Positions 1,700 through 16,515 of a stretch of 64,000 nt of DNA are shown one piece after another. The first letter of the stretch is position 1. Each line of letters starts with the position of its first letter. The notes under the pieces were generated by a model. The model saw only the letters and a program-made list of their open reading frames with translations, did no database searches and had not been told where the DNA came from. Source of the DNA: Syntrophorhabdaceae bacterium (GTDB lineage Bacteria; Desulfobacterota; Syntrophorhabdia; Syntrophorhabdales; Syntrophorhabdaceae); contig CAXXUO010000002.1 in the NCBI GenBank assembly GCA_963666485.2, positions 224,001 through 288,000 on the forward strand. Direction: 5' to 3'. Position numbers and translations under genes: made by a program.

Positions 1700-1706
1700 A
1701 TCCCTC

Positions 1707-1735
1707 ACAATAACGGGATATTAAGCTCTTGTCAA
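1707..1735 (-). promoter_or_regulatory. sigma70-like promoter of the SulP gene (probably leaderless)
   Basis: TTGACA (1735-1730), 17-bp spacer, TATTGT (1712-1707), then 7 nt to the ATG at 1699. Confidence 0.65.
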
Positions 1736-1743
1736 TCTGAACC

Positions 1744-3138
1744 TTACGGCGGCGTGGCTTTGCTGCCGTCGAGCATCTGCAGGTTGTTCATGGCATGCTC
1801 GAGCCCGGGATCTATCTCGAGCGCGCGCAGATATGCCTCGCGGGCGTCGCCCTTACGGCCGGCAAGGTAATACGCGTATCCCAGGTTATTGTAGGCCCGC
1901 GCATTTGCAGGGGATTTCTTCACCGTATCTTCCCACAGGGCTGTTTCGCTTGAATACACGCGGTTCCGGGCAACGGTAAAAGAACCGAGAACGATCGAGA
2001 TACACACCAGGAATATCACAAAAAAGCGAAACCGCGGAAGTCTCCGGTAAAAAAATGACGTTATCGCAATTGCCGCTGCGAGGAACAATCCCCAGCTCGC
2101 GTGATAGAAATGCCGGTCGCTTATACTGTCGATACGCGGTATCAGGACCACCATGGCCATGGCAAGAAAGAACCAGCATATCCCGAAGGCGACATACGCC
2201 CTCTTCCGCACAATTCCCAGGAGGGTGATAACGGCAAGCACAACGACAGCCGCAGTCTGAAGGGAAAAAGCGGACGAGGTGAACAGTTCACCGGGGTCGA
2301 TATTGAGCCGGTTCGGCAGGAACAGGTGGAAGAGAAGCTCCCCGGCGGCCGTCGCCTGGCCGATGAGGTTCTCCCTGAACCCCCTTAACCCGAAACTGTA
2401 CATGAGAATGTAGCGGTACCGGGGATGGGCGAGGACCATGGCAATGATCCCCGCAAAAAGCGCCCAATGGACCCATTGCCGGGACAGCGTTTTCTTGAAG
2501 GGCCTTACATGACCCGTGCCCGCCTCGTACAGGACAAGGGCCAAGGGTAGGGTGATGGCGTATTCCTTGGTTGCGACCCCCATGAGGAACAGAAGCGGCG
2601 ACAGGGCATACAGCCAGATCTTTTTCCCTTCCCGCGAACCCTTCACGTAAGCGGCGATGCTCCCCAGGCAGAACATCGTCATCAAAGAAGCGCTGCGCCC
2701 GCTTATATATGTGACGGCTTCCGTCTGGATGGGGTGCAGGGCGAACAGAAGTGCTGTCAGGAGGGCTGCCGGGTATGCGCCGTTTTCGGGAAGGCCCGTT
2801 TTGCTTTCCTTCACAAAAGAGACTGTGAGGTTGTATACGAGAAGTACATTAATGAGATGGATGGCAAGGTTGAATACGTGAAATCCGAACACCCCCGCGG
2901 GCGATGTCCAGTTCAGGGTATACGTTAGCTTGAGCAAAGGCCGGATGCCGGGAACGAACTGTTTCCAGAAGGCAGGCCATGAATGTACGGCCGGGTTGAA
3001 CACGATGACGTTGTAGTCATCGAGCTGGAACACACCCCGGAATGAGTTGATATAGACGATAAGCGCCGCGCCGAGCGGTATCAACGCGTATAAAGCACGG
3101 CTCGCGTCGGGCCAGTTCTTATTTTCCGAAGAAACCAC
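1744..3138 (-). CDS. TMTC-like GT-C membrane glycosyltransferase (protein O-mannosyltransferase-like) with C-terminal TPR
   Basis: Multi-TM protein with a DD motif after TM1 (FQLDDYNVI), HPIQTEAVTYISGR motif and C-terminal TPR (ARAYNNLGYAYY...ALEIDP). Start uncertain: GTG 3138 or 3165. Confidence 0.8.
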   Translation of the reverse strand: MVSSENKNWPDASRALYALIPLGAALIVYINSFRGVFQLDDYNVIVFNPAVHSWPAFWKQFVPGIRPLLKLTYTLNWTSPAGVFGFHVFNLAIHLINVLLVYNLTVSFVKESKTGLPENGAYPAALLTALLFALHPIQTEAVTYISGRSASLMTMFCLGSIAAYVKGSREGKKIWLYALSPLLFLMGVATKEYAITLPLALVLYEAGTGHVRPFKKTLSRQWVHWALFAGIIAMVLAHPRYRYILMYSFGLRGFRENLIGQATAAGELLFHLFLPNRLNIDPGELFTSSAFSLQTAAVVVLAVITLLGIVRKRAYVAFGICWFFLAMAMVVLIPRIDSISDRHFYHASWGLFLAAAIAITSFFYRRLPRFRFFVIFLVCISIVLGSFTVARNRVYSSETALWEDTVKKSPANARAYNNLGYAYYLAGRKGDAREAYLRALEIDPGLEHAMNNLQMLDGSKATPP

Positions 3139-3388
3139 CAGCCTTCTTGAAAACGTCAACAACACCCGGTGCCGGGTTGGAAGGATTCACCGACGGAACA
3201 GGGACAGGTTGTGAATTGCCTGTCTGCCCTGTGTTCTGGCGCGACGTACCGCTTCTGCCTGACGAGCTGTCCTGCCCCCCGGAGCCCGGCAGCTGCAGGC
3301 CGGGTATGGTCTGGCTCCCGGCTTCGCATACCATGAACAAAAAGCACAGGCCGAGGATAATAAGGGAAATGATCTTGACAGTTTTCAC
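3119..3388 (-). CDS. small exported Ser/Gly/Pro/Thr-rich protein (89 aa)
   Basis: GTG start with GGAGG RBS, signal-peptide-like N-terminus, low-complexity body; sits between two co-directional genes. Confidence 0.7.
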   Translation of the reverse strand: MKTVKIISLIILGLCFLFMVCEAGSQTIPGLQLPGSGGQDSSSGRSGTSRQNTGQTGNSQPVPVPSVNPSNPAPGVVDVFKKAGGFFGK

Positions 3389-3404
3389 GGTGCCTCCTGC
3401 AGCA

Positions 3405-6308
3405 TTAACGGACCACGGCGATCGGGAAATCCTGGATCGTCTGCGGCTTTGCCGTTGTGGGCGTCTGCCTGCCCTGGGTTAACTCTTTTACTCTCTCGGA
3501 CAGGTAAAGGTCAAGCATATTGATGGTGACCCTGCCTTTCCCTGTCATGTCGGCCTTTCCGCCGAGACCGTCGATCAAGGCCCTCGTAAAAGCGCCGTTG
3601 TTCCACTTCTGGTCTTCGAGCGACTGCTGGCGCCCTGTCGACGATGTAAAAACGACAGCACCGTTCTCGGCACTGATCAGCTCGTTGACAATGCCGTCGA
3701 TGTTCGGCGCGATCGCCTTTGCCCCTCTTTTGCCGAGGACGTCGCCCGCATGGCAGGTATCCATGAAAACGATCACCTTGCCGGGAATCGATGCCACCGC
3801 GTCCTTGATATAGGTGAAAAGGACACTCGTCGACTCGAGCCGTGCCTTGTCAAAATCGGACGGTATGAAATAATACTGCCCCGAGCTGTTGTCCCCGTGT
3901 GACGACATAAATATCATGGCGACATCGTGCTGCGTCGCGGAGCGCTTGAGCCATTGCAGGCCATCAACGACATTTTCCCGGGTCGCCTGCGCATCCGTCA
4001 GGACCTTCGTCGAAACGTCGCGGTACAGCTTTCCTTTCTGGGCATTCATCGCGCCGGCGAAATCGATGGCATCTTTCGCGGCAAACTTCAGGTTGTTCTC
4101 GGGATGCTTCGTGTACCTGCTGACGCCGATGGCGAGAACGTACAGTTTCGGCTTGATCGTGAAGCCCTCGGCAGCCGGCTGCTGCGCGTTGGTCCTCATG
4201 ACCCGGACGGATGCGGCCTCGCTCGTCGTGTTCTTTGTCATCGCGATAACGCTTATCGTGTTCTGCGGCCCGTCGATCGCCACGTCGACAGTCCTCGCAA
4301 CCGATCCTTTGCCTGTCGACGGCCGTGTGCCTGCTCCCTCGAGGACGATGTCGCGCGCCTGCGGTATCGGGCGGCCGTCAACGAGGACCTTTATGCCGGT
4401 TACCGGCGCGCCGGACGGAGATTCCACGGAAAATTTTACAGGAACTGTATTCGCACCGACCCGGGCCCCGTCGGCGGGTGACGTTATGCGGACCACCGGC
4501 GGAAGGTTCCCGGCGATGGATGACTGTGCCGCCTGCTGACCGGATGCTGTGAGCGCCCCGCCTTCATCGTAGGTCGTCATGAGATTTGCCAGGACCTCGG
4601 GATGGTAATATGTTTTCCGGAACTGGGCGACGGGATAGAAGTACGCCTCCCGGTCCCAGCCGTTGTTGACATGCCAGCCAAGGATCGAATCAGCGCCGGG
4701 GCTCGCCGCGTAGTAACCGCGGGGCGTCCATGCCACCCAGGGTTTCCTCGGGCCGTCAAACCTGAGGACACGGAACATTGCAGCCAGTTGCGTCCCGTCG
4801 GATACCCGGTACCACCGTATCGTCCCGTCGTCATGGCCCACCACGAGCACCTTGCCGTTCTGCGAAACATTCGCGACCCACGGTACGGAGAAGGCACGTT
4901 TCTTCCATATGACTTTGCCGCTTGCGTCAAACCGGAAGATAGACCAGTTCGACCCGACGATAAAAGATTGCCCTCCCGGGACTATTACGGCGCTTCTCGC
5001 CATCTCATCCTTTCCAAGATCGATCTTCTGATCATTGAGCCTGAAGCCATCCCTGTCCCTGATGCCCGTCAATTTCATCCCGGGCGCAGAGCGGATGGGA
5101 TCGGCAAGTTCGGAATCACGCCCTGACGCGGCGTCAAAATCACCATCCACAAGGGAGAACCTGTACGTGATGGCCTGCTCTCTTCCGAAGACCAGGCCGA
5201 TCGCACTGCCGTCCCCGGAAACCCTGATGGTCGTGCTCCGATAATCAGTCCCCACATCGGACCTGGTGAACAGGCGCTTACCCTCCGGTGTGAATCCGCC
5301 GAGGATGGGGTCCGCCGTGGCATACACCACGTTCCCGCCGGGAATGGTCCGGGTGACAAGTATCGTATTGGCCCCGGACACCACCCACGTGACACTGCCC
5401 CTGCCCGCATCGTCAAAGACGCCTATGACGTATCTTCCGTCCCGGATATACGTGCCCCCGGCGATAAGCCTCTGACCGTCGGGCGACCATGCAACGGCTG
5501 CAAGGCCCTGATTTTTCTTGAGGCTGGAAAGATCGGGTGAATAGAGGAATTTCAGGTCGTCACCCGACAGGACCTCGATGTCCGGCGTGCCGGATATCCC
5601 TGCCGCAATGCGTTTGCCATCCGGAGAGAACCTGACCTGCGCGGCGTTGCCGGTACGCGTCCTGGCCCGCGCGATCTGTTTCAGGCCCCGGTCATACAGG
5701 ATCACATCCCCGTTTCCTGAAGAGGCTGCCCAGCGGCCTGACCGGTCACAATCGATGGTCCTGACAGCCCCGGAAAATTCCGGTGTTCGGGCGATACGCG
5801 CGAATGTGGCGGCATCCACCGTATGTATGCCGCCGGAGTTGAGGCCGACCGCCAGTATTTTCCCGTCGGACGAATACGCAAGATATCGCGGGCGGTCGGG
5901 AAACCCGTTCAATCGCTTCACCATCCTGCCTGACGCACGGTCGTAAAAATACAGGGAATAATCGTTCGGGGCAGAATTCGTAAAGCCGCCGAACGCGACC
6001 ACCTCTCCGTCAGGCGAGATCGCAGCCGCACTGATGACCCCCTGCGAGCCCTCGTCGATGGGGAAGCGCAGCGCTCTTACAAGTTTGCCGTCGGGCAGCG
6101 ACCAGATCCTCACCTGTTTTTCCGAAGCCGTTACCATGAACCTGCCGGCGGCGTCGATGGACATTGTATAGATCGCCGAATTATGCGTGCCCGTATCCAG
6201 TTGGATTATGGGGTTGGATGTCAGGGCGAGCCCCCCTGCCGGAACGATCAAAAGGAAGAGGGAAATCAATGCCGTCACGTGAAAAACCGCAACCGCCGTC
6301 TTGCGCAT
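3405..6308 (-). CDS. exported WD40 beta-propeller + Ig-like + caspase-family (peptidase C14) protein
   Basis: ATG 6308 with GGAGG RBS and signal peptide; WD40-like repeats; C14 domain LYVLAIGVSRY...AKDA, catalytic SSHG and MDTCHAG. Confidence 0.9.
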   Translation of the reverse strand: MRKTAVAVFHVTALISLFLLIVPAGGLALTSNPIIQLDTGTHNSAIYTMSIDAAGRFMVTASEKQVRIWSLPDGKLVRALRFPIDEGSQGVISAAAISPDGEVVAFGGFTNSAPNDYSLYFYDRASGRMVKRLNGFPDRPRYLAYSSDGKILAVGLNSGGIHTVDAATFARIARTPEFSGAVRTIDCDRSGRWAASSGNGDVILYDRGLKQIARARTRTGNAAQVRFSPDGKRIAAGISGTPDIEVLSGDDLKFLYSPDLSSLKKNQGLAAVAWSPDGQRLIAGGTYIRDGRYVIGVFDDAGRGSVTWVVSGANTILVTRTIPGGNVVYATADPILGGFTPEGKRLFTRSDVGTDYRSTTIRVSGDGSAIGLVFGREQAITYRFSLVDGDFDAASGRDSELADPIRSAPGMKLTGIRDRDGFRLNDQKIDLGKDEMARSAVIVPGGQSFIVGSNWSIFRFDASGKVIWKKRAFSVPWVANVSQNGKVLVVGHDDGTIRWYRVSDGTQLAAMFRVLRFDGPRKPWVAWTPRGYYAASPGADSILGWHVNNGWDREAYFYPVAQFRKTYYHPEVLANLMTTYDEGGALTASGQQAAQSSIAGNLPPVVRITSPADGARVGANTVPVKFSVESPSGAPVTGIKVLVDGRPIPQARDIVLEGAGTRPSTGKGSVARTVDVAIDGPQNTISVIAMTKNTTSEAASVRVMRTNAQQPAAEGFTIKPKLYVLAIGVSRYTKHPENNLKFAAKDAIDFAGAMNAQKGKLYRDVSTKVLTDAQATRENVVDGLQWLKRSATQHDVAMIFMSSHGDNSSGQYYFIPSDFDKARLESTSVLFTYIKDAVASIPGKVIVFMDTCHAGDVLGKRGAKAIAPNIDGIVNELISAENGAVVFTSSTGRQQSLEDQKWNNGAFTRALIDGLGGKADMTGKGRVTINMLDLYLSERVKELTQGRQTPTTAKPQTIQDFPIAVVR

Positions 6309-6348
6309 AATGCCTCCCTTGCTATTGCGAGATATGATCCACCACGGG

Positions 6349-9300
6349 TCAGCGGATGCGCTGCACCGCGTATGTCCGCGAATCACCGCCTTCCGTCGCG
6401 CGGACCGTGCATGAGAACTGGTTGCCGCTTCCGTCCATCACAAAACTGAAGGTCCCCGAGTTCTTCGCATCGCTTGCTTCGCGGAAAGTACCCTTCGCCG
6501 TGTTGCCGGCAATGGTGCCTTCGAGCGGCCCTCCGAGTGTTTCCGTCTGACGTGCACCCGATGACGTCTTGTACGGGACATTGACCGAAAAAGTACCCGT
6601 GATGCGCGTACCGCTCGATGTCAGGCTGAAGGTAATGACCTCACCCTCGCGGCCGGCTGAGCTCTTCCATGAACCCGAAAATGACACCGCAGCCGCAGGG
6701 CCGTGCGAGGTCTCCACCGGTTTCGCGGTATATACCCTTCCCGTCTGGGTGCCCGGCTTGCTGGCGGCATACGAGGCTTCCAGCTGTTTCACATAATTTG
6801 CCATCGCGGTGTCGTTCGGCGCATACCTCAGGTATTCCCTGTATGCGGCAATCGCCTCGGGGATCTTGTTCTGTTTTTGCAATTGCTCGCCCTGCTGGCG
6901 CAGCTGCATGGCGTGCTGTGAATTCTTCTGGTCGGCGGCATATTTCGCTTCCAGTGTTTTTATGTAATTTGCCATCGCGGTGTCGTTCGGTGCATATTTC
7001 AGGTATTCCTTATACTTCATCACCGCTTCGGGGATCTTGTTCTGCTTCTGGAAGGCCTCACCTTCGGAACGCAGCACCTTCGCACGGGCCTCAATGGCCC
7101 TGGCGTCCGCCTGTTTCTTCAATTCCGCCTCGAGCTGCCGTATATAATCCTGCAATTTCGGGTCGGGCTGGCACTTCAGGCTTTCACGATACTTATCGAT
7201 GGCATCGGCGTATCTCTTCTGCTGCGCGAGGGCGTCACCCTGCTGGCGCAGGGCCTGGCACGCCTGTTTCGCTGCCGCTTGTTTTTTCAGCGAATCATCG
7301 AGCTGGGCTGCATATGTTACGCGCTGTTTGTTCCCCGGAGCACAGGCGATGTTCTCTTTGAACTTCGCGAGCGCATCGGCATGCTTGCCTGCATTGTAAA
7401 GCGCCTGGCCTTCGGTCCATTTGGCCTCGCACTTACGGGCCGCATCATCTTTCTTCGCCTTTGCCTGCTGCAATTCATTAAGCTTCCCCTTGAGCTTGTT
7501 CCCGTGGATCTCCATGTCCCCGTTGCGAGGACGGATCTTGAGGCCTTCTTCGGCCGAGGCTATGCCTTTTTTGATCGTCGCCTCGTCGAGAGGCTGCGTC
7601 GTCGTGGCAAGCCCGGCGACGTACGCATAAAGCTCCTTGAACCTCTTATCTTTGAGGCCCGCGTCTTCCTTGAGCTTCGAGTATTTTGCGTAGTCAGGGT
7701 CTTTGATGTCCCCGTTGTCCCGCATGGCCTTGAGCCCCTGTTCATAACTCGTTGAGGCCGCCTCGAAATTATAGGAGCGGTAATACTGGTCCCCCGTATT
7801 GAAGAAGGATTGCGCGTACGCCTTCGCGTTGGCATTCTTTTGCTTTTTCTCCATCGCCGCGGCAAGCTCATTTATCTGTGCCCGCCTCGGATCGTCGGCC
7901 TTGAAGCGCGCGGCTTTGTCCTTGAGTTCCTTGACGACCGCCGCGATCGCGTTCGGGTCCGAGGGTACACCCCGCGCGAAATTGGCCTTCGCGGTCTCGT
8001 AATACTGCATCGCGTCGCGCTTCATTGCGAGCATCGTGTTTATCGTCCCGAGCGCGGCTTCGTAGTGCTTTTTATCCGCAGGGTTCAGTTCATATGTCAG
8101 GACCTGCTTGACGTGGACCTCGGCCTTTTCCCAGTCCTCCGCCTTGAACAGGCGCGTCCATTCCGCGTTGCTCTTCTGCGAGAAGTCGTTGTACCATGCG
8201 ATCCCTTTATTGAAATCCGCCGTCACGCGGGCCCACAACGGGTTGGTCGACGCCTGTCCCCCTGCCTGTTCGCGCAGGATGTCCTGTATCTCGAGCATCG
8301 CCTTTTGGGCCGACCATATCTTTTTCTGTGCTATAAATGCATCGAATTCTTTTGTTTTTGCCTCGACGCGCGGCCATGCATCGGCGTATTTCTTCGCCTC
8401 TTCGAGCTTCTTTTTCGCATCGGCATCCGCGGGGTTGAGCTTTACCGCCTGTTCAAGCCGTTTTATCGCTTCTTTATGATCTGCCTTATTGAGGGCGTCC
8501 CATCCCATCTTCTTGCAGTCCTGCGAAAATTGGTTAAGAACGGGTGCGGCCAGTTTCGGGTCCGTCTTTGCCGCGTCTTCGGCGGCAGCAATTGCCTCAT
8601 CGTATTTCTTCTGCGACCAGAGCTGCTTTGCGGAGTCGAGCTTTTTCTTCGCCTCATCCTTTTTCTTGCCCGTCGACACGTCGGACTGGGAGATGGTGAC
8701 GCTGAGCGACCCGGTGCCGCTGCCTAAGTCCGCTCCATCGGCCGACTTGACGGCGCACGTCATCGTGTACGAACCGGTCTTGCTGCATGTTACCCCGGTT
8801 TCCTTTGACGATGGTCCCGAGATGCTGCAGCCTTCGGGGGCTACGGTCCACTGATAACGGAGATTTTCTGTGGCCGGGGTCACGCTCGCCGCGAACTCGA
8901 CCCGCTGCCCTTCCGCTATCTGGCGGTCCGCCGATACCAGCCCGACGCCTTCCTTCCAGATCATCGGGGGCGGCCCGGCGATCTTCGGGCCTGTTACGGT
9001 AACGGATGGTTTCTTCGCAGTAACCGTGATCTTTTCAACACCGATCTCATCGCCGCCGTCCTTTGCCTTCGCGTGAGCGGTCACGGTGACGGGTTTGTCA
9101 TCTTTCGGTTTATAGGTGTATGTCTTCTGGTCCTGTGTCGCGGCACCCCCGCTCTGCGTGTTGCCGGCTGCCTCCCACCAGTATGAGACGGTCTGCTGGT
9201 CGAGTTTGGGCTGTTCCGTCAGCGTAATCTTCACCTCCTGCCCGACAAGCGGTTCAGCAGGCTCGGCCTTCAGGGTTATCCCGGGCTTCACGACCTGGAT

Positions 9301-12300
9301 CTGTATCTGCTCCGATTCGCCGACCGTCATCTTCCGGCCGTCCACATCACGCTGGACAACGACCCAGACAGGTGTTGTCCCCGGCTTCCGGAAAGACGCC
9401 GTATTGCGTGACTGGGAACCGCCTTTCGTTTCGTATGTCGGGTTCTTCGGGTCGCCGAAAACAGCGTCGGGGTTGCGCTCCCATACAAATGAGAACGAAC
9501 CGCCCGCCGGTTTGTCGCCGGAAAAGACCTCAGCGAGGAAAGTCGCCTTCCCGCCTATCGGGATGCTGTTCTCCTTCGGGCTCTCCTTGGTGATCTTGAC
9601 CTTCAGGCCCGTGCACTGGATAGCCAGGCTGGCGGCTGCGCTGTTGTCATCCTGGTCCGTCACCGTGACGCTTGCGGTGCATGTCTTGCATTCACGGGTG
9701 TTCAGTACTTTTGCACGGTCTTCCTTTGCATCCTGGGCGCACCCGCCCCAGGTGAATTTGTATCCGCCGGATCCCTCGCTGGCCTCGGCTACGAGGTCGA
9801 CGATATCGCCAAAATCGGCGGGGTTCTTCGATGCGGTAAGTTTGACCGTAAGAGGCTTCGTGTGTTTCTTGTTCTGGTCGCGCCTCATCTTGTCGGCGAG
9901 CGCCGGGTCGTAGGTCCCCTTTCCATAAGCCCCTTCCCAGCAAGTCTTTGCGCAGTCGTTCGGGGCGCCGAAGCTATGCCGTCTGGTCGCTCCAAAGGCA
10001 CCTGCCCCGCCAAAACACGGGCCGGAGCTTTTTGCCTCGGGTATCGATTTCTCTTCCGGGTCCCACCATACGCCGATGTGCCCCGCCCAGCCGCAGTAGC
10101 ACCGGCACAGGCAGTTATAGTAGCGTGCGTCGAGTTCCTCTTTCGTCGGCGGCGGGGTGCAGCCCTGTTCCAGGGCGGGTTTGCCCCTTTCGACACAGTC
10201 GTCAGGCTTTGTTGCCGTAACGGTCCGCGTCTGTTTCTTCGTTGCCCTGCTGCATTCACCCCATTCGGAATATTCGTAAGAGCACGTGGGCGCCTCTTTT
10301 TTCGTCGTAGCCGCCGTATCGGTCGAGGGCGTGTCCGGCTTCTTCACATCCTGGGTCTTGTCCGGCGGCAGTTCTACAACAACCGTTGCGCAGCCTCTTT
10401 GTAACGCCTTGCCCGACAACCCGTCCTCAAGTGCGACGACCGGCAGGCCTGTGACATACCAGTCGTACTGTTCGGTCACACAGACCTCATAGTTCCCCGG
10501 GGTATCGAGGGTCAGTTCCGCCGCGCCCCTGTATTCTTTCAGCATTTCCCTGCCGTTTAAGGTCCAGACAAACTGCCGGCCGGAGCCCGGTTTCGCATGG
10601 ACCCCGCCGAGGCATTTCGCATGCTCTTCGATGTCCTTCCTGATCGCGGCCGTGTCTTTGCTGTCCGTCGCCGAAAGCCGGACGGTCCCCTTTTCTTTGA
10701 GCCGGGCCGGGCTTGCCGTGACAGTGATGCCCTGTTCTTCAAGGGACTGCCGCAGGGCATCCGTCTCGTTGACCTTGAGCTGGCGGTTGTCGAGCCACGT
10801 CTTCACCACAGGCTGAAGGCATTTATTGATGAGGGCCTGCTCAACCCCTTCGTCATGTTTTGACTCATAATCGTCATAATGTTTTGACGCGGCCTTGGCA
10901 TGGCACTTCAGAAGGGAGATCAGGTACGGCGGTATGAGTTCCTGCCGGAATTTGTGCCCCATCTCCAGGCTTTTCCTTAAGCCCTGGGAATCATATATCC
11001 GGCATGCGAGGCTCCCGTCATCGACAAGCTGTTCACACGTCTTGTCCTCGATATTCTGCTCCCTGCCGGGGACCGTGTAGATGCCGGCGATGAGGTCCAT
11101 GCAGTCCTGCCTGCTGACGACCGCCCCGTACCCGTACTGGCTGATCCAGTCGACAAGCAATTCCCCCGTGGTCATAAATATGACGCTGAACAACTGGGCA
11201 TAACCGAAGGTCGGGTTGGCGAGGCCTGCAATATTTGCCGCAAGGCGTGCACTTGCCTTTGCCGCCCCTTCCTTTTCGATGGCAGCCGGGAACTCCTTGA
11301 GCTCCCAGAGCATTATGAGCGACATGAACCAGTTCTTGTACGCGAACCTTGCGCCGCTCTGCAAGGTAGCGAGAGCACTTCCTGAGGCCTCTTCAAGGTT
11401 TACACGTAAAGTGGCCCACTTTCCCTCACCTTCGAGTATCCCCTTGAGAAAAGCCCGGTACCGCGCGGAAGCCTTCGCCGCCATTGCCTCGAGTGCGGTG
11501 AACTCGACATTGGCCTTTTTCGTCACCTCCGAGCCGAGCTTGTTTGCTATCTGCCTCGATTTGGCCAGCATTGCCTTTGCATCGTCGGCGGATTCAAATG
11601 CGGCCTTTATCGCGTCATCGACCTGGCCCTCGAGGCTGTCGAGGTCTTTCACCACGGCGCCTTCGGGGGTGACCCCGCCGAGCTGGCGTGCACTCTTCAG
11701 CCGGTCTTTCGCCCGTTTCAGGTTCTTCTTCGCCGTGTCGAGCTTCCCTTCTTTCAGCGCCTTCTGGGCTTCATTCAGGCTGTATTCCGCCGACTGCACG
11801 TACCCTTTCAGGTTGGCCTCACCTACCTGTTCGGCCGTGTGCTCCGCTTCCGCCGTCGCCTTGTGCACAAGTTCATATGAATCCGAACCCTCTTTTGCGA
11901 CAAGCTCCGAGACCTGGACCCTCTTACCTGTCTCGTATCCCTGGCGGATGAACTTCGTGGGGGTTGTGTAAAGGCCCTCCGCCGCATCCTCACCCACCTC
12001 GAGGAGGTTCGGGTAATTCCCCATCTTGAGGAATTTGGCGATCGCCTCTTCATTCTGCTCGATCCCTTTCATGAGCTGGGCGGGCGGATAGAAATTGACC
12101 GATTTCAAAAGCAGCTGGATCTGTTCCGTGCTGTATCCCGCCTTCTGGGCCATAGCGAAGATCTTCTTCCTGAGCCGGCCCTGGAAGGCTTTCCAGACCT
12201 CTCGCGCCCGTTCAGGTGACACATCATCCAGCGAGATGAACAACCGGGCGTCATGGTCGGACGGGTCCGCAAGATTGAGAAGGGGGTTCCTGTAGCCTTC

Positions 12301-12483
12301 GCCGGATATCCAGGACCCCTGTTTGATGACCTTGAGGAATGGGTTGCCCATATCCAGGAGGACCCCGTCCATCGCCTGGCTGACAAGATGCGACGGCTCC
12401 ACGGAGACCGCGAAGAGCAAGGCCGGGAATACCAGGGAAAAGATAATGACAGCTGCCGTGGCCAGATGTTTCGGGGTGCGCAT
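6349..12483 (-). CDS. giant exported multidomain protein (2044 aa): Ig/PKD-like, TSP1-like, Cys-rich and TPR modules
   Basis: Long ORF with GGAGG RBS and signal peptide; beta-rich PKD-like repeats (YQWTVAP, YKFTWG); TPR repeats in the C-terminal third; YSEWGECS motif. Confidence 0.85.
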   Translation of the reverse strand: MRTPKHLATAAVIIFSLVFPALLFAVSVEPSHLVSQAMDGVLLDMGNPFLKVIKQGSWISGEGYRNPLLNLADPSDHDARLFISLDDVSPERAREVWKAFQGRLRKKIFAMAQKAGYSTEQIQLLLKSVNFYPPAQLMKGIEQNEEAIAKFLKMGNYPNLLEVGEDAAEGLYTTPTKFIRQGYETGKRVQVSELVAKEGSDSYELVHKATAEAEHTAEQVGEANLKGYVQSAEYSLNEAQKALKEGKLDTAKKNLKRAKDRLKSARQLGGVTPEGAVVKDLDSLEGQVDDAIKAAFESADDAKAMLAKSRQIANKLGSEVTKKANVEFTALEAMAAKASARYRAFLKGILEGEGKWATLRVNLEEASGSALATLQSGARFAYKNWFMSLIMLWELKEFPAAIEKEGAAKASARLAANIAGLANPTFGYAQLFSVIFMTTGELLVDWISQYGYGAVVSRQDCMDLIAGIYTVPGREQNIEDKTCEQLVDDGSLACRIYDSQGLRKSLEMGHKFRQELIPPYLISLLKCHAKAASKHYDDYESKHDEGVEQALINKCLQPVVKTWLDNRQLKVNETDALRQSLEEQGITVTASPARLKEKGTVRLSATDSKDTAAIRKDIEEHAKCLGGVHAKPGSGRQFVWTLNGREMLKEYRGAAELTLDTPGNYEVCVTEQYDWYVTGLPVVALEDGLSGKALQRGCATVVVELPPDKTQDVKKPDTPSTDTAATTKKEAPTCSYEYSEWGECSRATKKQTRTVTATKPDDCVERGKPALEQGCTPPPTKEELDARYYNCLCRCYCGWAGHIGVWWDPEEKSIPEAKSSGPCFGGAGAFGATRRHSFGAPNDCAKTCWEGAYGKGTYDPALADKMRRDQNKKHTKPLTVKLTASKNPADFGDIVDLVAEASEGSGGYKFTWGGCAQDAKEDRAKVLNTRECKTCTASVTVTDQDDNSAAASLAIQCTGLKVKITKESPKENSIPIGGKATFLAEVFSGDKPAGGSFSFVWERNPDAVFGDPKNPTYETKGGSQSRNTASFRKPGTTPVWVVVQRDVDGRKMTVGESEQIQIQVVKPGITLKAEPAEPLVGQEVKITLTEQPKLDQQTVSYWWEAAGNTQSGGAATQDQKTYTYKPKDDKPVTVTAHAKAKDGGDEIGVEKITVTAKKPSVTVTGPKIAGPPPMIWKEGVGLVSADRQIAEGQRVEFAASVTPATENLRYQWTVAPEGCSISGPSSKETGVTCSKTGSYTMTCAVKSADGADLGSGTGSLSVTISQSDVSTGKKKDEAKKKLDSAKQLWSQKKYDEAIAAAEDAAKTDPKLAAPVLNQFSQDCKKMGWDALNKADHKEAIKRLEQAVKLNPADADAKKKLEEAKKYADAWPRVEAKTKEFDAFIAQKKIWSAQKAMLEIQDILREQAGGQASTNPLWARVTADFNKGIAWYNDFSQKSNAEWTRLFKAEDWEKAEVHVKQVLTYELNPADKKHYEAALGTINTMLAMKRDAMQYYETAKANFARGVPSDPNAIAAVVKELKDKAARFKADDPRRAQINELAAAMEKKQKNANAKAYAQSFFNTGDQYYRSYNFEAASTSYEQGLKAMRDNGDIKDPDYAKYSKLKEDAGLKDKRFKELYAYVAGLATTTQPLDEATIKKGIASAEEGLKIRPRNGDMEIHGNKLKGKLNELQQAKAKKDDAARKCEAKWTEGQALYNAGKHADALAKFKENIACAPGNKQRVTYAAQLDDSLKKQAAAKQACQALRQQGDALAQQKRYADAIDKYRESLKCQPDPKLQDYIRQLEAELKKQADARAIEARAKVLRSEGEAFQKQNKIPEAVMKYKEYLKYAPNDTAMANYIKTLEAKYAADQKNSQHAMQLRQQGEQLQKQNKIPEAIAAYREYLRYAPNDTAMANYVKQLEASYAASKPGTQTGRVYTAKPVETSHGPAAAVSFSGSWKSSAGREGEVITFSLTSSGTRITGTFSVNVPYKTSSGARQTETLGGPLEGTIAGNTAKGTFREASDAKNSGTFSFVMDGSGNQFSCTVRATEGGDSRTYAVQRIR

Positions 12484-12580
12484 GCAATCCCTCCGGATAT
12501 TTGTTATAAGGGTATCAGGTCAATCCTGATGAAAAGATATGGGCGGCGAAGGCATCGATACATCCTCCGCCCCGATTAGC

Positions 12581-12609
12581 AATATATTAGTCGTACAATG
12601 TATTGTCAA
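12581..12609 (-). promoter_or_regulatory. sigma70-like promoter for the leftward operon (giant protein)
   Basis: TTGACA (12609-12604), 17 bp, TATATT (12586-12581); a GGGCGG/CCGCCC hairpin lies in the predicted leader (12541-12572). Confidence 0.6.
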
Positions 12610-12671
12610 CATATTTTAGCAATCCCGTTTTTCCTTGTTTTTAAAGGTATTTTCGGCACCTTTATCTCTCG

Positions 12672-12701
12672 TTGACAAAATTTTCAGCTCATGGTTATAC
12701 T
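12672..12701 (+). promoter_or_regulatory. sigma70-like promoter for the rightward operon
   Basis: TTGACA (12672-12677), 18 bp, TATACT (12696-12701). Confidence 0.6.
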
Positions 12702-12817
12702 ACGTTCAACAGGAATCTTTTTGGGGTGGACATTCCGCGTTTAATCTCGTTAGCGCATGTCCCGTTTTCACCAGGCATCAGAAGTTAAAAAACATTTATT
12801 TTTACATGGAGGTTGGT

Positions 12818-13678
12818 ATGAAAGCATTACCTTCAGTCATTGCAGTTGTCGTCCTTTCACTTTTCATTCTCGGCCTCGCGGGCGAAGCCCCGGCGGGACC
12901 ATCCGGTGCAAAAGCGATCTTTGACAGCGGTGAAGGGCCTGCAGTCCGGATGTCATCAGGCGGCGGGACCGCAAAACCGGCCACGCAGACGGCTTCAGCT
13001 CCTGCCAGAGAAAAATATGTCGGTGTATCCTATAAGCTTGTACTCCTGCGCGACAATGGCTCCTTTGACATTGTCAGCAAGGCGCGTACCTTCCGTACCG
13101 GCGAGAAGATAAAGCTCCTCGTCCGGACCAACAGGCCCGGCTACCTCACGATCATGAATATCGGTACGTCCGGCAACTCAACCGTCCTGTGCAGCGAGCA
13201 GGTAGAGCCCGGCGCAATGGTAGAGATCCCGAGAACGGGTAATTTCCGGTTCTCCGGCCCTGCGGGAACAGAAAAGCTTCTCGTCATGCTTTCGTCCCAG
13301 CCGAATCCCATGGGCGGACCTTCGTCATCGACGGTAGCATCCGCACCGCCCCCTCCTCCGGCTGATGCATCCTCCACGGCTGCACTTCCCCCGCCGCCTC
13401 CTCCGGGTTCGTCGGACGCGGCAAACGTGCCGCCTCCACCGCCTCCGAGCGGCGCGGTCATGACGGCGTCACTTGAGGGCTCCAAGGATATAACGCTCGA
13501 CAGCAACGGCACGAGTTATGGCGTCGTTAACCCGAAAAAAGGCTGGAAGCCCGAAGCACGCGGGAAAAAAGACATTATCATGGAATCGGCGGGTGGTGAG
13601 AATTTCGGCGTCGTGCCTGCATCATATGTGGCGGACGGCAGCATACTCACGCTCGAAATAAAGCTCAAACACAGATAA
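12818..13678 (+). CDS. exported DUF4384-like protein with Pro-rich linker
   Basis: ATG 12818 after GGAGG; signal peptide; FRTGEKIKLLVRTNRPGYLTIMNIGTSG...GPAGTEKLLVMLS resembles DUF4384; three poly-Pro tracts. Confidence 0.75.
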   Translation: MKALPSVIAVVVLSLFILGLAGEAPAGPSGAKAIFDSGEGPAVRMSSGGGTAKPATQTASAPAREKYVGVSYKLVLLRDNGSFDIVSKARTFRTGEKIKLLVRTNRPGYLTIMNIGTSGNSTVLCSEQVEPGAMVEIPRTGNFRFSGPAGTEKLLVMLSSQPNPMGGPSSSTVASAPPPPPADASSTAALPPPPPPGSSDAANVPPPPPPSGAVMTASLEGSKDITLDSNGTSYGVVNPKKGWKPEARGKKDIIMESAGGENFGVVPASYVADGSILTLEIKLKHR

Positions 13679-13687
13679 GGAGCGGCT

Positions 13688-14515
13688 ATGAAGAAAGAAA
13701 GTATCAGGTTTCTCATCATTGCTTTCATCGGGGTATTCTTCCTGTACTCGTGCGCTTCCATGCTGCCGAATCCCGATGAGATAAAAACGGAAGAAGACCG
13801 CATTCGGGCGAGAAATCAATGCATAGCTATGTATACAGCCGGTGGAGCCCTCGGCGGTGCCATTATCGGCGGACTGATCGGCGGCGATTGGAAGGGGGCC
13901 GGTATTGGTGCCGCGATCGGGGGCGGTATCGGTTTCGCATATGCCTGGGGTAAATGCCTTTCACTGTACTCCACCCTGAAAAGCACCCAGACGGCAGGTT
14001 ACCAGGAGACTGCGCAGAAGACCGGGTACAATCAGTCGCAGGGCGAAGTCGTCAAGATACAGAGGTTCAACATCACTCCGGTATCCGTCGCGCAAGGCGG
14101 CTCGGTTAAACTGAACGGCTCCTATTATGTCATGGCCCCTCCCGACCGGAAAGAGATCAAGGTGACGGAAACGCGGATCGTGAAGTATTTCGATCCTTCC
14201 AAGAAAGAGTTCGTCGATCTCGGACAGGTAGACCAGGAAGTGACCGCAGCACCGGGAACGCGGACTGCGGACGGCTCTTTCGACATTCCCAAGGATGTCC
14301 CGGAAGGCCGCTATAAAATCGCATTTGTCGTCAATGCAGAAGGCAAGTCGGACATGGTCGAGCGTGAGCTCACTGTCCGGAAAGGGACCGCGTATGTCCC
14401 CGGCTTTAACATGCAGGCCTTCGACCGGCCGGTTACGTACTCCGCCCAGCAGGTCATGATCGTTGAGGAGGTTTCCCTGCTCCACAGAACGGCAGGCGGG
14501 TCTGTCGTGAGGTAA
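13688..14515 (+). CDS. glycine-zipper lipoprotein with Ig-like C-terminal domain
   Basis: Lipobox-like LYSC; glycine zipper GGALGGAIIGGLIGG..GAGIGAAIGGGIG; AAGGAG RBS. Confidence 0.8.
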   Translation: MKKESIRFLIIAFIGVFFLYSCASMLPNPDEIKTEEDRIRARNQCIAMYTAGGALGGAIIGGLIGGDWKGAGIGAAIGGGIGFAYAWGKCLSLYSTLKSTQTAGYQETAQKTGYNQSQGEVVKIQRFNITPVSVAQGGSVKLNGSYYVMAPPDRKEIKVTETRIVKYFDPSKKEFVDLGQVDQEVTAAPGTRTADGSFDIPKDVPEGRYKIAFVVNAEGKSDMVERELTVRKGTAYVPGFNMQAFDRPVTYSAQQVMIVEEVSLLHRTAGGSVVR

Positions 14516-14520
14516 GAGAT

Positions 14521-15765
14521 ATGAAGCTTCTGAAGATCCTTTTTTGTGCTGCACTTTGCCTGGCCTTCCTTGCTGCCCCGGGCGGCAGGGTGTGTGCCCA
14601 GACATCGCCGGTTACAGACGGACATTTAAATGCCATCAACAACAGTTTCAAGCAGAACAGGGTAACGAACGGTTTCGCTGAACTCGACTCGTATGGCCGG
14701 GTCCAGCTTAAAGGCGGATACGAGGACGACAGGCAGGTTGACCTGGCCTTCTCGCTTGCCCAGCAGATCGTCGGTGTAAAATGGGTCTCCCCCGTCACCC
14801 CGGACAATATCAAGGTCAAGGAATGGGAGAAAAGGATCGGCGGTCTTTTCAGCCGGGCCCGCGTTATCAAGGAGGTTGGACCTGACTCGTCCGTGCCGGG
14901 TTCGGTGCGCAACCGGTACGCCCTGGTCGTCGGTGTCGGCCAGTTCAAGTACGGTATCCAGTCCCTGCAGTACACGGTGCGGGATGCCTCCAGTTTTTAC
15001 AGCTTTCTCGTGAATCCGCAGGGAGCGGGGTTTCCCCGCAACAACGTGTATTACCTGACCGACCAGACGGCAACCCGGGACAATATCGTGAAATACCTCA
15101 ATACCATCAAGTCCCAGGCGGGGCCGGACGACCTCGTGGTCATTTACATGTCGAGCCACGGGACGCCCCCCGATAAGTTTGGCGGTGTTCACATCGTTAC
15201 GTACGACACCGAGGTGAAACCGCGTGAGAAGGTCTGGCACACGGCTATCACGGAACAGATGCTCAAGGACTTTGTTGAGAATTTAAGGTCAAAGCGTCTT
15301 GTGATGATCCTCGATACGTGCTACAGCAACGGCGCCTACCGCTCCATACCCGGTTTTCTGCCGCCGGGCGGCAAATCCCTTGGCGCAGACGAAGATGAGG
15401 GATACGGCATATCCCGTGACTACGGAAAACGGCTTCTCGGGTCCAAGGACATCGTCCTCGATGACGAGCCGAAGAAAAAAAGCTCGGGCAAGAGCATAGA
15501 CAGCCAGGACGGGTACGGCAAGGTCCTCCTGTCTGCCAGTAGCGCCGGAGAAAAATCCTGGGAATCCGACAGTCTCAAGAACAGCGTCTTCACGTACTAT
15601 TTCGTCGACGGTTTAAAGCGGTATAACGGTTCCGTAAAAGATGCATTTACATATTCCAAGCCGCTTGTTTCCCAGAGGGTAAAACAGGAAAAGGGCGCCG
15701 ATATTTCGCAGACCCCGCAGGCGATGGCGACGAGCGACAACTGGAACATGCGCATTACGAAATAA
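14521..15765 (+). CDS. exported caspase-family (peptidase C14) protein with N-terminal BON-like domain
   Basis: Signal peptide; GRVQLKG...AQQIVGVKWV is BON-like; RYALVVGV...RDA, catalytic SSHG and LDTCYS. Confidence 0.9.
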   Translation: MKLLKILFCAALCLAFLAAPGGRVCAQTSPVTDGHLNAINNSFKQNRVTNGFAELDSYGRVQLKGGYEDDRQVDLAFSLAQQIVGVKWVSPVTPDNIKVKEWEKRIGGLFSRARVIKEVGPDSSVPGSVRNRYALVVGVGQFKYGIQSLQYTVRDASSFYSFLVNPQGAGFPRNNVYYLTDQTATRDNIVKYLNTIKSQAGPDDLVVIYMSSHGTPPDKFGGVHIVTYDTEVKPREKVWHTAITEQMLKDFVENLRSKRLVMILDTCYSNGAYRSIPGFLPPGGKSLGADEDEGYGISRDYGKRLLGSKDIVLDDEPKKKSSGKSIDSQDGYGKVLLSASSAGEKSWESDSLKNSVFTYYFVDGLKRYNGSVKDAFTYSKPLVSQRVKQEKGADISQTPQAMATSDNWNMRITK

Positions 15766-15800
15766 ATATGAACTTTTAAATAAAGAGGAGGGAACTATAG

Positions 15801-16451
15801 ATGAGGAAAATGGTATTCGTTGTGACGATAGCATTTCTGGTGTCTATCGGGTTGATGGGAACGGGCTGCGACAAGATGCCGTGGAACAAGCCGAAAGCGG
15901 AGCCTCCGCAGCAGGCAGCACCGCCGCCGCCTCCGCCGCCGCCTGCGCAGGAAGAGAAGAAAGCCGAGCCTGCGGCCGCTCCTGACAAGAAAGCAGCATC
16001 AGGCGAACCGAGTGAAGCCGCCAAGGCGAACCTGAAACAGGCAATGCAGTACATCAATACAGCGAAGAGTACCAAAACCAATCGCAAAGAGAACATAGAG
16101 AATGCAATAGCCGAATATACGAACGCGATCAATAAAGACCCGAATTATGCCGAGGCCTATGCAGGACGGGCCGGTGCATATATGCTGCAGGACAAGAACA
16201 ATAAAGCCCTCGATGACCTCAAGAAGGCAAAAGAGTTGAAACCTGACAGCGCGAGCATCCGTTACAACCTGGCATGCGTCCATTCATTGATGGGAAATAC
16301 CGACTATGGCCTCGATGAACTCGACGCAGCGCTTTCCAAGGGTTTCAATGACTACGACTCCCTGAGGAAGGACCCGGACATCAACAATCTCCGGAAAAAA
16401 GCGGAATTTCAGAAGATACTGGAAAAACACAAGGTGTTTATCACGAAGTAA
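15801..16451 (+). CDS. TPR lipoprotein with poly-Pro linker
   Basis: GTGC lipobox, PPPPPPP tract, TPRs (AIAEYTNAINKDPNYAEAY; RYNLACVHSL). Confidence 0.85.
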   Translation: MRKMVFVVTIAFLVSIGLMGTGCDKMPWNKPKAEPPQQAAPPPPPPPPAQEEKKAEPAAAPDKKAASGEPSEAAKANLKQAMQYINTAKSTKTNRKENIENAIAEYTNAINKDPNYAEAYAGRAGAYMLQDKNNKALDDLKKAKELKPDSASIRYNLACVHSLMGNTDYGLDELDAALSKGFNDYDSLRKDPDINNLRKKAEFQKILEKHKVFITK

Positions 16452-16472: not shown

Positions 16473-16515
16473 AAAAACCCTGCAGATACTATGTATTTGC
16501 AGGGTTTTCTTTTTT
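16473..16515 (+). terminator. intrinsic terminator closing the caspase operon
   Basis: AAAACCCTGCAGATAC-tat-GTATTTGCAGGGTTTT hairpin followed by a T tract. Confidence 0.8.

Follow-up and report, generated by a model that had tools for sequence, protein, structure and literature searches.

A conserved lysine motif shared by the linker of an exported caspase-like peptidase and its obligate DUF4384 neighbour in a Syntrophorhabdaceae bacterium

Our analysis showed that a conserved, operon-specific lysine motif is shared by two neighbouring exported proteins of a Syntrophorhabdaceae bacterium (Desulfobacterota; Syntrophorhabdia): it occurs in the disordered linker of a metacaspase-like C14 peptidase and again in a DUF4384 protein, the obligate neighbour of this peptidase. 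Both are encoded in a window of 64,000 nucleotides (GenBank assembly GCA_963666485.2, contig CAXXUO010000002.1, positions 224,001 to 288,000 of the forward strand), within which all coordinates given below are counted. The peptidase, called here the second caspase, has 414 residues, including a signal peptide and, N-terminally, a small alpha/beta domain (14521-15765, plus strand); the DUF4384 protein has 286 residues and also begins with a signal peptide (12818-13678, plus strand). Another caspase, an exported protein that combines WD40, Ig-like and C14 domains (the WD40-caspase; 3405-6386, minus strand), is encoded 6 kb away. A reading of the sequence alone had proposed that motifs common to all three proteins form a cleavage and activation code. 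The shared motif proved real for the two neighbours, and its lysines may be sites of self-processing that the DUF4384 protein copies; our weaker claim on the WD40-caspase is that it is an accessory, optional further protease with a matching motif flavour.

Results

Motif sites and conservation

The linker between the p20 and p10 parts of the second caspase (L2 linker, residues 277-328; 15349-15504, predicted to be disordered) contains GGKSLG with Lys285 (15367-15384), GSKDIVLD with Lys309 (15439-15462) and a looser third motif, SGKSI, with Lys324 (15484-15498). The DUF4384 protein has an N-terminal site, GAKAIFDSGEG, directly after its signal peptide (12905-12937, GAKAI at 12905-12919), a site 2, GSKDITLD, at the end of a Pro-rich linker (13478-13501), and a site 3, GKKDIIME, in a predicted beta-hairpin (13562-13585); like those of the caspase, these lie on the plus strand. 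On the minus strand, the WD40-caspase carries QARDIVLE (4338-4361) at the end of its Ig-like domain (Big_7 match, residues 630-675) and GAKAI (3711-3725) in its L2 loop, ten residues past the Cys of DTCHAG, the Lys being 12 residues after this catalytic Cys (3753-3755). All the motifs listed by the sequence-only reading were found in the sequence at their coordinates.

Each partner was aligned with its best 120 homologues at E <=0.001, taken from 317 proteins for the DUF4384 protein (the 120 at 45-99% identity) and from 600 for the second caspase, which gave 121 rows in both cases. In 119-120 of the 121 rows, the DUF4384 protein has an N-terminal site that reads G-A-K-A-[IL]-F-D-S-G-[ED]-G. 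Site 2 (G-[SAG]-K-D-I-x-x-D) has its K and both of its D residues in 121/121 rows and its I in 119/121, and none of the 121 rows departs from the G, K, D or E of site 3 (G-x-K-D-[IM]-x-x-E). On the caspase side, Lys285 (GGKSLG) and Lys309-Asp310-Ile311 (G[SA]KDIV) are present in all 121 rows and Lys324 in 117. Column identity is 0.94, 0.87 and 0.90 at the three DUF4384 sites, as against 0.79 in the DUF4384 core and 0.53-0.54 in the linkers, and it drops from 0.94 at the N-terminal site to 0.53 in the linker right after it. For the second caspase the values are 0.999 and 0.92 at the sites, 0.86 in the p20 core and 0.59-0.64 in the segments after site 2. The motif sites are more conserved than the folded cores in both partners, in the manner of short linear motifs, and on the evidence of these alignments chance can be taken as excluded for the KDI motifs. 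The idea that the motifs are kept while the linkers around them diverge was thus borne out for the DUF4384 protein and the second caspase; it failed for the GAKAI of the WD40-caspase, which is exact in one of 27 rows.

Motif frequencies were counted in a rough proteome made up of 3223 non-overlapping open reading frames (ORFs) of at least 100 residues from the genome that holds the window (1,145,617 residues in total). The pattern [KR]DI.[LM][DE] has 20 matches, compared with 7.3 in residue shuffles (maximum 11), and 4/20 fall in the three proteins; G.[KR]DI.[LMV][DE] is matched three times in the proteome, always in the DUF4384 protein or the second caspase. GAKAI occurs 4 times where 2.95 are expected, so this pentamer taken alone is within chance, and an excess over the proteome background is seen for [KR]DI.[LM][DE] and not for GAKAI. 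A proteome-wide code did not emerge: G[GAS]K[SAD][ILV] gave 49 matches against 51.9 in shuffles. Just two of the 3223 ORFs contain two matches to this last pattern, and they are the neighbouring DUF4384 protein and second caspase. Recent gene conversion between the motif copies was considered and found no support, since the copies differ at synonymous codon positions and so bear no sign of recent copying. Four long proteins encoded outside the window, on contigs C1, C3 and C4, account for a further 4/20 of the loose matches with F-x-SGYT-[KR]-DI-[IV]-LDKG near the C-terminus, a conserved context of an unrelated kind.

Co-occurrence and operon

The two genes occur together. Among 96 genomes of the class, the DUF4384 protein occurs in 22 and the second caspase in 21; 21/21 caspase genomes also have the DUF4384 protein, and the caspase was found in 0/74 genomes without it. 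The DUF4384 and caspase genes stand together with that of a glycine-zipper lipoprotein in 17/18 syntenic loci of the class, and the gene for a TPR lipoprotein is present in 18/18. In a wider sample of 57 related loci, drawn from one-genome-per-species contigs, 53 have the first three genes as a group and 47 have the TPR gene; three of the four misses are contig ends and one is a non-relative. Cassette-bearing loci come from Syntrophorhabdus, Syntrophus, Geobacter, Nitrospirota, Thermodesulfovibrio and Betaproteobacteria; one carrier with a complete genome is the culturable Syntrophus buswellii. The single genome with the DUF4384 gene only (G056) has it beside a WD40-caspase gene and a TPR216-like gene (locus L043). 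The DUF4384 protein and the second caspase are obligate partners.

In one genome (G091, 73% complete; C41:27556-28774, loci L040 and L192) the caspase of the cassette is split, its N-terminal half lying in another frame with 5 internal stops (1 TGA, 1 TAG, 3 TAA); its C-terminal half is intact, as is the DUF4384 gene. Either decay of the copy or an error of assembly may be the cause.

Family membership of the proteins is clear from Pfam. The DUF4384 protein matches PF14326 over the full profile (1-81) at 45.4 bits (cut-off 27); its start is Met62 of the ORF listed at 12635-13678, which is consistent with homologue lengths of 278-331 residues. PF00656 is matched at 71.5 bits by the second caspase and at 53.8 bits by the WD40-caspase (cut-off 21.4); the latter, which also matches WD40 and Big_7, has 993 residues as listed, including a signal peptide, and Met27 is its likely start. 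These three proteins are the genome's sole DUF4384 protein and its sole two Peptidase_C14 proteins.

As predicted from gene layout, 12818-16451 is one exported operon on the plus strand, comprising the DUF4384 protein, the glycine-zipper lipoprotein (13688-14515; weak Gly-zipper matches and a C-terminal beta domain), the C14 peptidase and, as the final gene, the TPR lipoprotein (15801-16451; lipobox, Pro-rich linker and TPR repeats). The four genes are bracketed by a promoter-like site at 12672-12701 (TTGACA, 18 nt spacer, TATACT; 11/12 matches in a consensus scan) and, on the 3' side, by a strong terminator-like hairpin of 16 pairs followed by a T run (16474-16508; sequence scan). No conserved G-x-K-x-[ILV] motif was seen in the glycine-zipper lipoprotein (54 aligned rows) or in the TPR lipoprotein.

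Predicted structures

An AlphaFold2 model of the DUF4384 partner (71-row alignment, mean predicted local distance difference test (pLDDT) score 65.6) is confident for residues 66-160, the DUF4384 sandwich. The stretch that contains the N-terminal site (22-62) and the Pro-rich linker (167-227) fall below pLDDT 50, and site 2 lies at the edge of the latter disordered stretch. In the model of the second caspase (63 rows, mean pLDDT 64.1, core 80-94), the linker with all three Lys motifs has pLDDT 24-37 and no secondary structure. The sequence-only reading had placed every motif in a linker-like segment, which agrees with the models for the caspase linker, the N-terminal site and site 2, and disagrees with the hairpin of site 3 and with RDIVLE of the WD40-caspase at the end of its Ig-like domain.

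Foldseek searches with the second caspase model returned Candida and yeast metacaspases, MALT1, Geobacter GSU0716, AtMC9, TbMCA2 and AtMC4 at E values of 1.6e-10 to 1e-6; as modelled, its fold matches that of Arg/Lys-specific metacaspases and MALT1. By sequence profile the closest solved proteins are the plant metacaspase AtMC4 (E 4.5e-7) and Yca1, with the SSHG and DTC motifs aligned. The DUF4384 model gave weak Ig-like or RhoGDI-like sandwiches and no match at E <=0.001. The linker domain of type II metacaspases, a beta-hairpin with a helical region, has no counterpart in the model, where the linker is about 52-60 residues long and disordered; by analogy, the linker of the second caspase would work like a type II linker in an enzyme that lies outside this type. 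The N-terminal domain of the second caspase (14521-14880) had been labelled BON, a label that did not hold, as no Pfam BON match was found at E up to 0.01. Its residues 33-84 are modelled at pLDDT 72-85 as a small helix-strand-strand-helix domain, so a BON-like fold may yet be present.

A profile comparison raised another explanation of the shared motif. With hhalign, the tail of the DUF4384 protein aligned with the caspase linker and first p10 strand over 41 columns (probability 72%, E 3.5e-5), and the N-terminal site paired with the first linker site as expected, at a non-significant E of 0.15. The partner tail and the caspase linker with its first p10 strand could therefore be related hairpins that were inherited and kept for folding, with no interaction implied; a Y-[AG]-V-[VI] strand follows each copy, and site 3 resembles other DUF4384 tails. 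We consider this explanation unlikely: the caspase linker, the N-terminal site and site 2 are unstructured in the AlphaFold2 models and are yet the most conserved columns, and the strict co-occurrence of the genes, together with rare motif variants common to both proteins (see below), argues for coupling.

Catalytic site and pocket residues

The catalytic dyad of the second caspase is His213 (15157-15159) and Cys267 (15319-15321). Both are invariant in the 63 rows, as are the surrounding SSH213G and DTC267YSNG, and the Cys is also invariant in the 121-row alignment. These motifs align with SGHG and DSCHSG of AtMC4, and the WD40-caspase has SSHG and DTCHAG. The sequence-only reading had noted an Asp two residues before the catalytic Cys in both enzymes, and this is correct (DTC). 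In the accessible part of the AtMC4 report, Lys225 of the linker lies between the catalytic residues and in a pocket of Ser84, Asp137, Ser350 and Asp352; activation involves several linker cuts, and the freed enzyme cuts PROPEP1 after Arg69 (bioRxiv 10.1101/2020.03.09.983940). Ser211 (His-2) and Asp265 (Cys-2) of the second caspase align with Ser84 and Asp137 of AtMC4. Its likely p10 pocket pair, Ser346-Trp-Glu348, was assigned by pattern only; the p10 part searched alone against solved structures gave spurious weak matches and no solved relative. S211, D265, S346 and E348 are all invariant in 63 rows. By alignment, the WD40-caspase likewise has Ser at His-2 and Asp at Cys-2; its S-x-E in p10 was assigned by pattern only.

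Relatives were sampled more widely as the 150 best representatives from 1.84 billion proteins, 133 of which have recognisable His and Cys motifs. Asp at Cys-2 is present in 131/133. When Ala is at His-2, the linker motif has Arg only in 8 sequences and neither Lys only nor both in any (0 and 0), 19 having no motif; when Ser is at His-2, the counts are 57 for Lys only, 13 for Arg only, 4 for both and 32 for no motif. On a tree of the 78 unambiguous rows, Ala at His-2 arises 8 times, with 3 independent pairs on well-supported branches. The direction of the association fits a P1 reading in a test that is underpowered: with just 3 such pairs it cannot reach significance. A motif of the form G-[GAS]-[KR]-[GASD]-[LIM] stands 10 or 18 residues past the Cys in 36/82 motif-bearing sequences and is thus common in this enzyme group. 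Processing of animal caspases between their subunits takes place at roughly this position.

Co-variation between the partners

We compared 39 caspase-partner pairs on the caspase tree. KDL replaces KDI in the caspase in 8 rows from 4 lineages, and in 7/8 of these rows (3/4 lineages) both partner sites are KDL as well. Of the 31 rows in which the caspase has KDI, all 31 have KDI at partner site 2; at site 3 there are 28 with KDI and 3 with KDM. The two proteins also have rare variants in common, namely KDLVAE in locus L215 and KDLV[IL]VD in L210 and L216.

The WD40-caspase

Relatives of the WD40-caspase are present in 25/401 genomes of the phylum sample, and the family alignment has 27 members including that of the window. 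At the GAKAI position, K-A-[IL] is found in 4/27 rows (the window, L043, L057 and L064), the remaining rows having a basic patch such as TRRGVA or KRRGAL. Where RDIVLE stands, the same four rows have R-D-[ILM]-x-x-E and at least 15/27 have R-[GSA]-[VIL]-x-[IVL]; the R-D-x-x-x-E flavour does not occur outside the subclade that accompanies a window-type partner. The WD40-caspase itself is present in 1/18 syntenic loci, so the core system is the four-gene operon and the WD40-caspase is optional. The grouping of three proteins made by the sequence-only reading therefore stands for the co-occurring DUF4384 protein and second caspase and falls for the WD40-caspase, which is outside the conserved cassette.

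Chance resemblance has to be weighed mainly for the GAKAI common to the WD40-caspase and the partner. The background frequency of the pentamer, its single exact occurrence in the WD40-caspase family and the absence of this protein from 17/18 syntenic loci all speak for it. The three genomes with both proteins speak for a relationship, since the WD40-caspase loop and the N-terminal site of the partner agree in each of them (I/I in the window's genome, G000; L/L in G056 and G039), and so does the fact that the Ig-domain motif has its RD[ILM]..E flavour in the same subclade only. With the KDI motifs already set apart by their conservation, we regard chance as a very improbable explanation, the least probable of those considered here.

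Five WD40-caspase loci of the R-G-V-K-I-V flavour (L049-L053) adjoin a DUF4384 gene of another subfamily, whose tail reads T-R-[GA]-[VI]-K-[LI]; L051 pairs RAVQIV in the caspase with TRAVKI in the partner, and in L081, with a different caspase, RSVKI is found in both. Extended homology between the Ig domain of the WD40-caspase and DUF4384 tails was tried as an explanation and found no support (hhalign probability 6.7%), the likeness being limited to the motif. This second DUF4384 subfamily (L049-L053, L081-L082, L094-L104, L118 and L121) has an N-terminal lipoprotein-like domain and a tail of the form ..TRGVK[LI]..ASEFFE..KTG[KR], and adjoins WD40-caspases and other large caspases with R-[GSA]-V-K-I in an Ig-like domain.

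Between the operon and the WD40-caspase, divergent from the cassette, lies the gene for an exported TPR/PKD protein of 2044 residues (6349-12483, minus strand), in which the proteome scan found none of the motifs. It is kept beside the cassette at 58-86% identity in genus-level loci and a few others. In most close relatives this giant gene is directly followed by that of a 473-residue TPR protein (1744-3165, minus strand, in the window); the WD40-caspase gene intervenes in just the window and G039 (L064), and for this reason looks like a patchy insertion. The region is otherwise flanked by ordinary neighbours, a lytic transglycosylase with three LysM domains (17383-19224, minus strand) and a sulfate permease with a STAS domain (2-1708, minus strand).

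Discussion

The reading that we prefer, and to which we give an even chance of being right, is that the motif marks P1-lysine self-processing sites which are copied in the DUF4384 protein as a dedicated substrate or pseudo-substrate. The analysis shows the anatomy, the conservation, the co-occurrence, the pocket residues in p20 and the predicted disorder of the linker; a P1 role for the Lys, cleavage of any bond and the way in which regulation runs are what we infer from them. The near-invariant GGK-SLG and G[SA]K-DIV[L][DE] of the caspase linker would be the sites in the enzyme, and GAK-A[IL]FDSGEG and the two G-x-K-DI-x-x-[DE] of the partner would be their copies. In the zymogen, a linker Lys would occupy the acidic S1 pocket and then be cut, self-inhibition giving way to self-processing as in plant metacaspase 4. 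The same active site would subsequently engage the copies in the DUF4384 protein, and this protein would therefore serve the enzyme as its dedicated substrate or, as a pseudo-substrate, compete with self-processing.

A number of observations weigh against this reading. The positions conserved between the two proteins are mostly on the prime side (D-I-V-L-E), and the contacts described in the accessible part of the AtMC4 report are made by residues before the Lys, 221-223 of which pair with a strand (bioRxiv 10.1101/2020.03.09.983940). When kinship is controlled, about 2.8 of the pocket/P1 pairs are concordant and 0 opposite, which is not significant (sign test, p 0.25). The sequences suggest that co-variation between the partner and caspase motifs is only partial: the L201 partner does not follow the KDL of its caspase, the L197 and L198 partners mismatch at P4', the Syntrophorhabdus clade has Thr in the partner and Val in the caspase at P3', and the lineages with an I-to-L change are also the most divergent overall. 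Site 3 is modelled in a beta-hairpin (254-258/261-267, pLDDT 61-76), and its DIxLE..GG..Y.V pattern recurs without the Lys in other DUF4384 tails (hhalign probability 2%), so this copy at least may be structural.

The wider DUF4384 family points the same way. In 80 loci across the phylum, 42 of which have a caspase gene in the fetched stretch, the tail motif R-[GSA]-[VIL]-x-[VIL] is found in 24/43 tails without an adjacent caspase and in 15/42 with one; about 17% of DUF4384 tails are expected to show this Arg-Gly motif by chance. Among 20 genomes with no caspase near the DUF4384 gene, 9 have no Peptidase_C14 match at all, and 7/9 are at least 98% complete. We accordingly rejected a dependence of the wider Arg-Gly tail motif on caspases: it is as frequent without a caspase, and C14-less genomes carry DUF4384. 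Taken with the profile comparisons, this suggests that the motif probably derives in part from an old structural element in the tails of DUF4384 proteins, to which the Lys was added here.

The neighbours of DUF4384 in the nine C14-less genomes are a CHAT protease in 2, a contig-truncated WD40 gene in 1, and a CHASE2 cyclase and FecR, beta-helix lipoproteins or metabolic genes in the other 6. In one of them (L102 of G006, 3136-9622) the DUF4384 gene is flanked by genes for a FecR-like protein and a CHASE2 adenylate/guanylate cyclase, and a TPR/NosD/GNA1162-like lipoprotein is encoded upstream. In two others without Peptidase_C14 (L095 of G377, 8135-13143, and L139 of G420), DUF4384 is fused to or beside CHAT-domain proteases, in line with a published remark on its frequent fusion to protease domains.

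Alternatively, the K-D-I-x-L-[DE] strand could be a peptide ligand that binds a receptor surface non-catalytically; the copies in the protease and in the partner would compete for this surface or bridge the two proteins. WD40 and TPR domains are peptide binders, and candidate receptors would be the DUF4384 sandwich (by strand addition), the TPR lipoprotein and the WD40 propeller. The alternating hydrophobic pattern is typical of a strand, site 3 is modelled as a hairpin, Arg-Gly tail motifs are found in DUF4384 proteins without caspases, and the TPR lipoprotein is kept in 18/18 and 47/57 loci, including a locus with the WD40-caspase only. On the other hand, the invariant residue is a Lys after small residues in a disordered inter-subunit linker, which is where caspase-fold enzymes self-process, and the Lys/Arg identity goes with a residue of the enzyme pocket. 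The Arg-Gly DUF4384-caspase pairs, moreover, mostly have no TPR216-like gene in their 1.5 kb flanks; one was seen in 1/29 WD40-caspase loci (L055). Docking of this kind is a serious but doubtful alternative, to which we give roughly half the credence of self-processing and its copies.

The two ideas can be combined in a reading close to the earlier suggestion that the conserved prime side acts as a tethered ligand: the motif would be a cut site first and a signal afterwards. Cleavage would create identical neo-N-termini (DI[VT]L[DE]..., and AI[AF]... at the GAKAI-type sites) on the small subunit of the protease and on the fragments of the partner, to be read by one envelope receptor, for example the DUF4384 domain or the TPR lipoprotein of the cassette. 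The partner fragments would compete with the processed protease or release a brake on it. We think this scheme improbable, rather more so than inherited hairpins. If true, it would be a bacterial periplasmic counterpart of the caspase-9/Smac motif logic. The caspase-9 and Smac motifs compete for the BIR3 domain of XIAP, and we know of no BIR-like receptor for the present bacterial system. The likeness lies in a linker motif, that of the caspase-9 small subunit, which is also present on a separate regulatory protein, Smac/DIABLO, as the motif that binds inhibitors of apoptosis (IAPs) (PMC5410359, in its accessible part, with its reference to Srinivasula et al. 2001). The IAP-binding motif differs in that it acts as a neo-N-terminus to which a BIR domain binds rather than as a site that the protease reads and cuts, and it belongs to the animal cytosol.

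Self-processing at the lysines, with the DUF4384 protein as substrate or pseudo-substrate, finds its nearest known parallel in the Arabidopsis type II metacaspase AtMC4 (PDB 6W8S, 6W8R and 6W8T), which shares the C14 fold, the His-Cys dyad, the Ser at His-2 and the Asp at Cys-2. According to the part of the literature on it that is accessible, AtMC4 has a p20-p10 linker with several Lys/Arg self-cleavage sites, where Lys225 blocks the zymogen, and a small dedicated substrate, PROPEP1, that is cut after a basic residue; the Lys motifs of the linker and the DUF4384 protein are their candidate equivalents here. The present linker, at about 52-60 residues, is predicted to be fully disordered, without the beta-hairpin or helical linker-C domain of AtMC4, and the second caspase differs further in being exported and in having a small N-terminal domain. 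The candidate substrate here copies the linker motif and is encoded in the same operon, neither of which is described for PROPEP1 in the accessible text (bioRxiv 10.1101/2020.03.09.983940).

Among prokaryotic systems, Craspase (type III-E CRISPR; TPR-CHAT Csx29 with Csx30) also pairs a caspase-fold protease with a neighbouring, dedicated substrate that is cut in a flexible linker (bioRxiv 10.1101/2022.08.17.504292, accessible part). It is cytoplasmic and RNA-triggered, and its protease is of the CHAT and not the C14 type; motif sharing between protease and substrate is not mentioned in that part of the report (bioRxiv 10.1101/2022.08.17.504292). The orthocaspase MaOC1 of Microcystis and other prokaryotic C14 enzymes resemble the second caspase in cutting after basic residues, as far as the available text goes (PMC6426788), and GSU0716 (PDB 3BIJ) is among its top fold matches. 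DUF4384 is an accessory domain in 23/473 cyanobacterial orthocaspases (PMC8283722, Table 1, from the part of the paper available). Here it is a separate protein and not fused, and the accessible accounts of orthocaspases describe no partner substrate or shared motif. More broadly, we found no description of a motif shared by protease and partner in the accessible literature on DUF4384 and orthocaspase autoprocessing, subscription journals not being covered.

Bacterial relatives of caspases are widespread, and outside the CRISPR-linked and gasdermin systems their substrates and control are essentially unknown, especially for exported enzymes. The operon described here offers a concrete pair, one peptidase and one 286-residue neighbour, with named lysines and in a cassette that is kept across several phyla. 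If these lysines are cut, this enzyme group would gain its first cognate substrate and its first self-processing sites, and the frequent association of DUF4384 with caspase-fold proteases would be explained.

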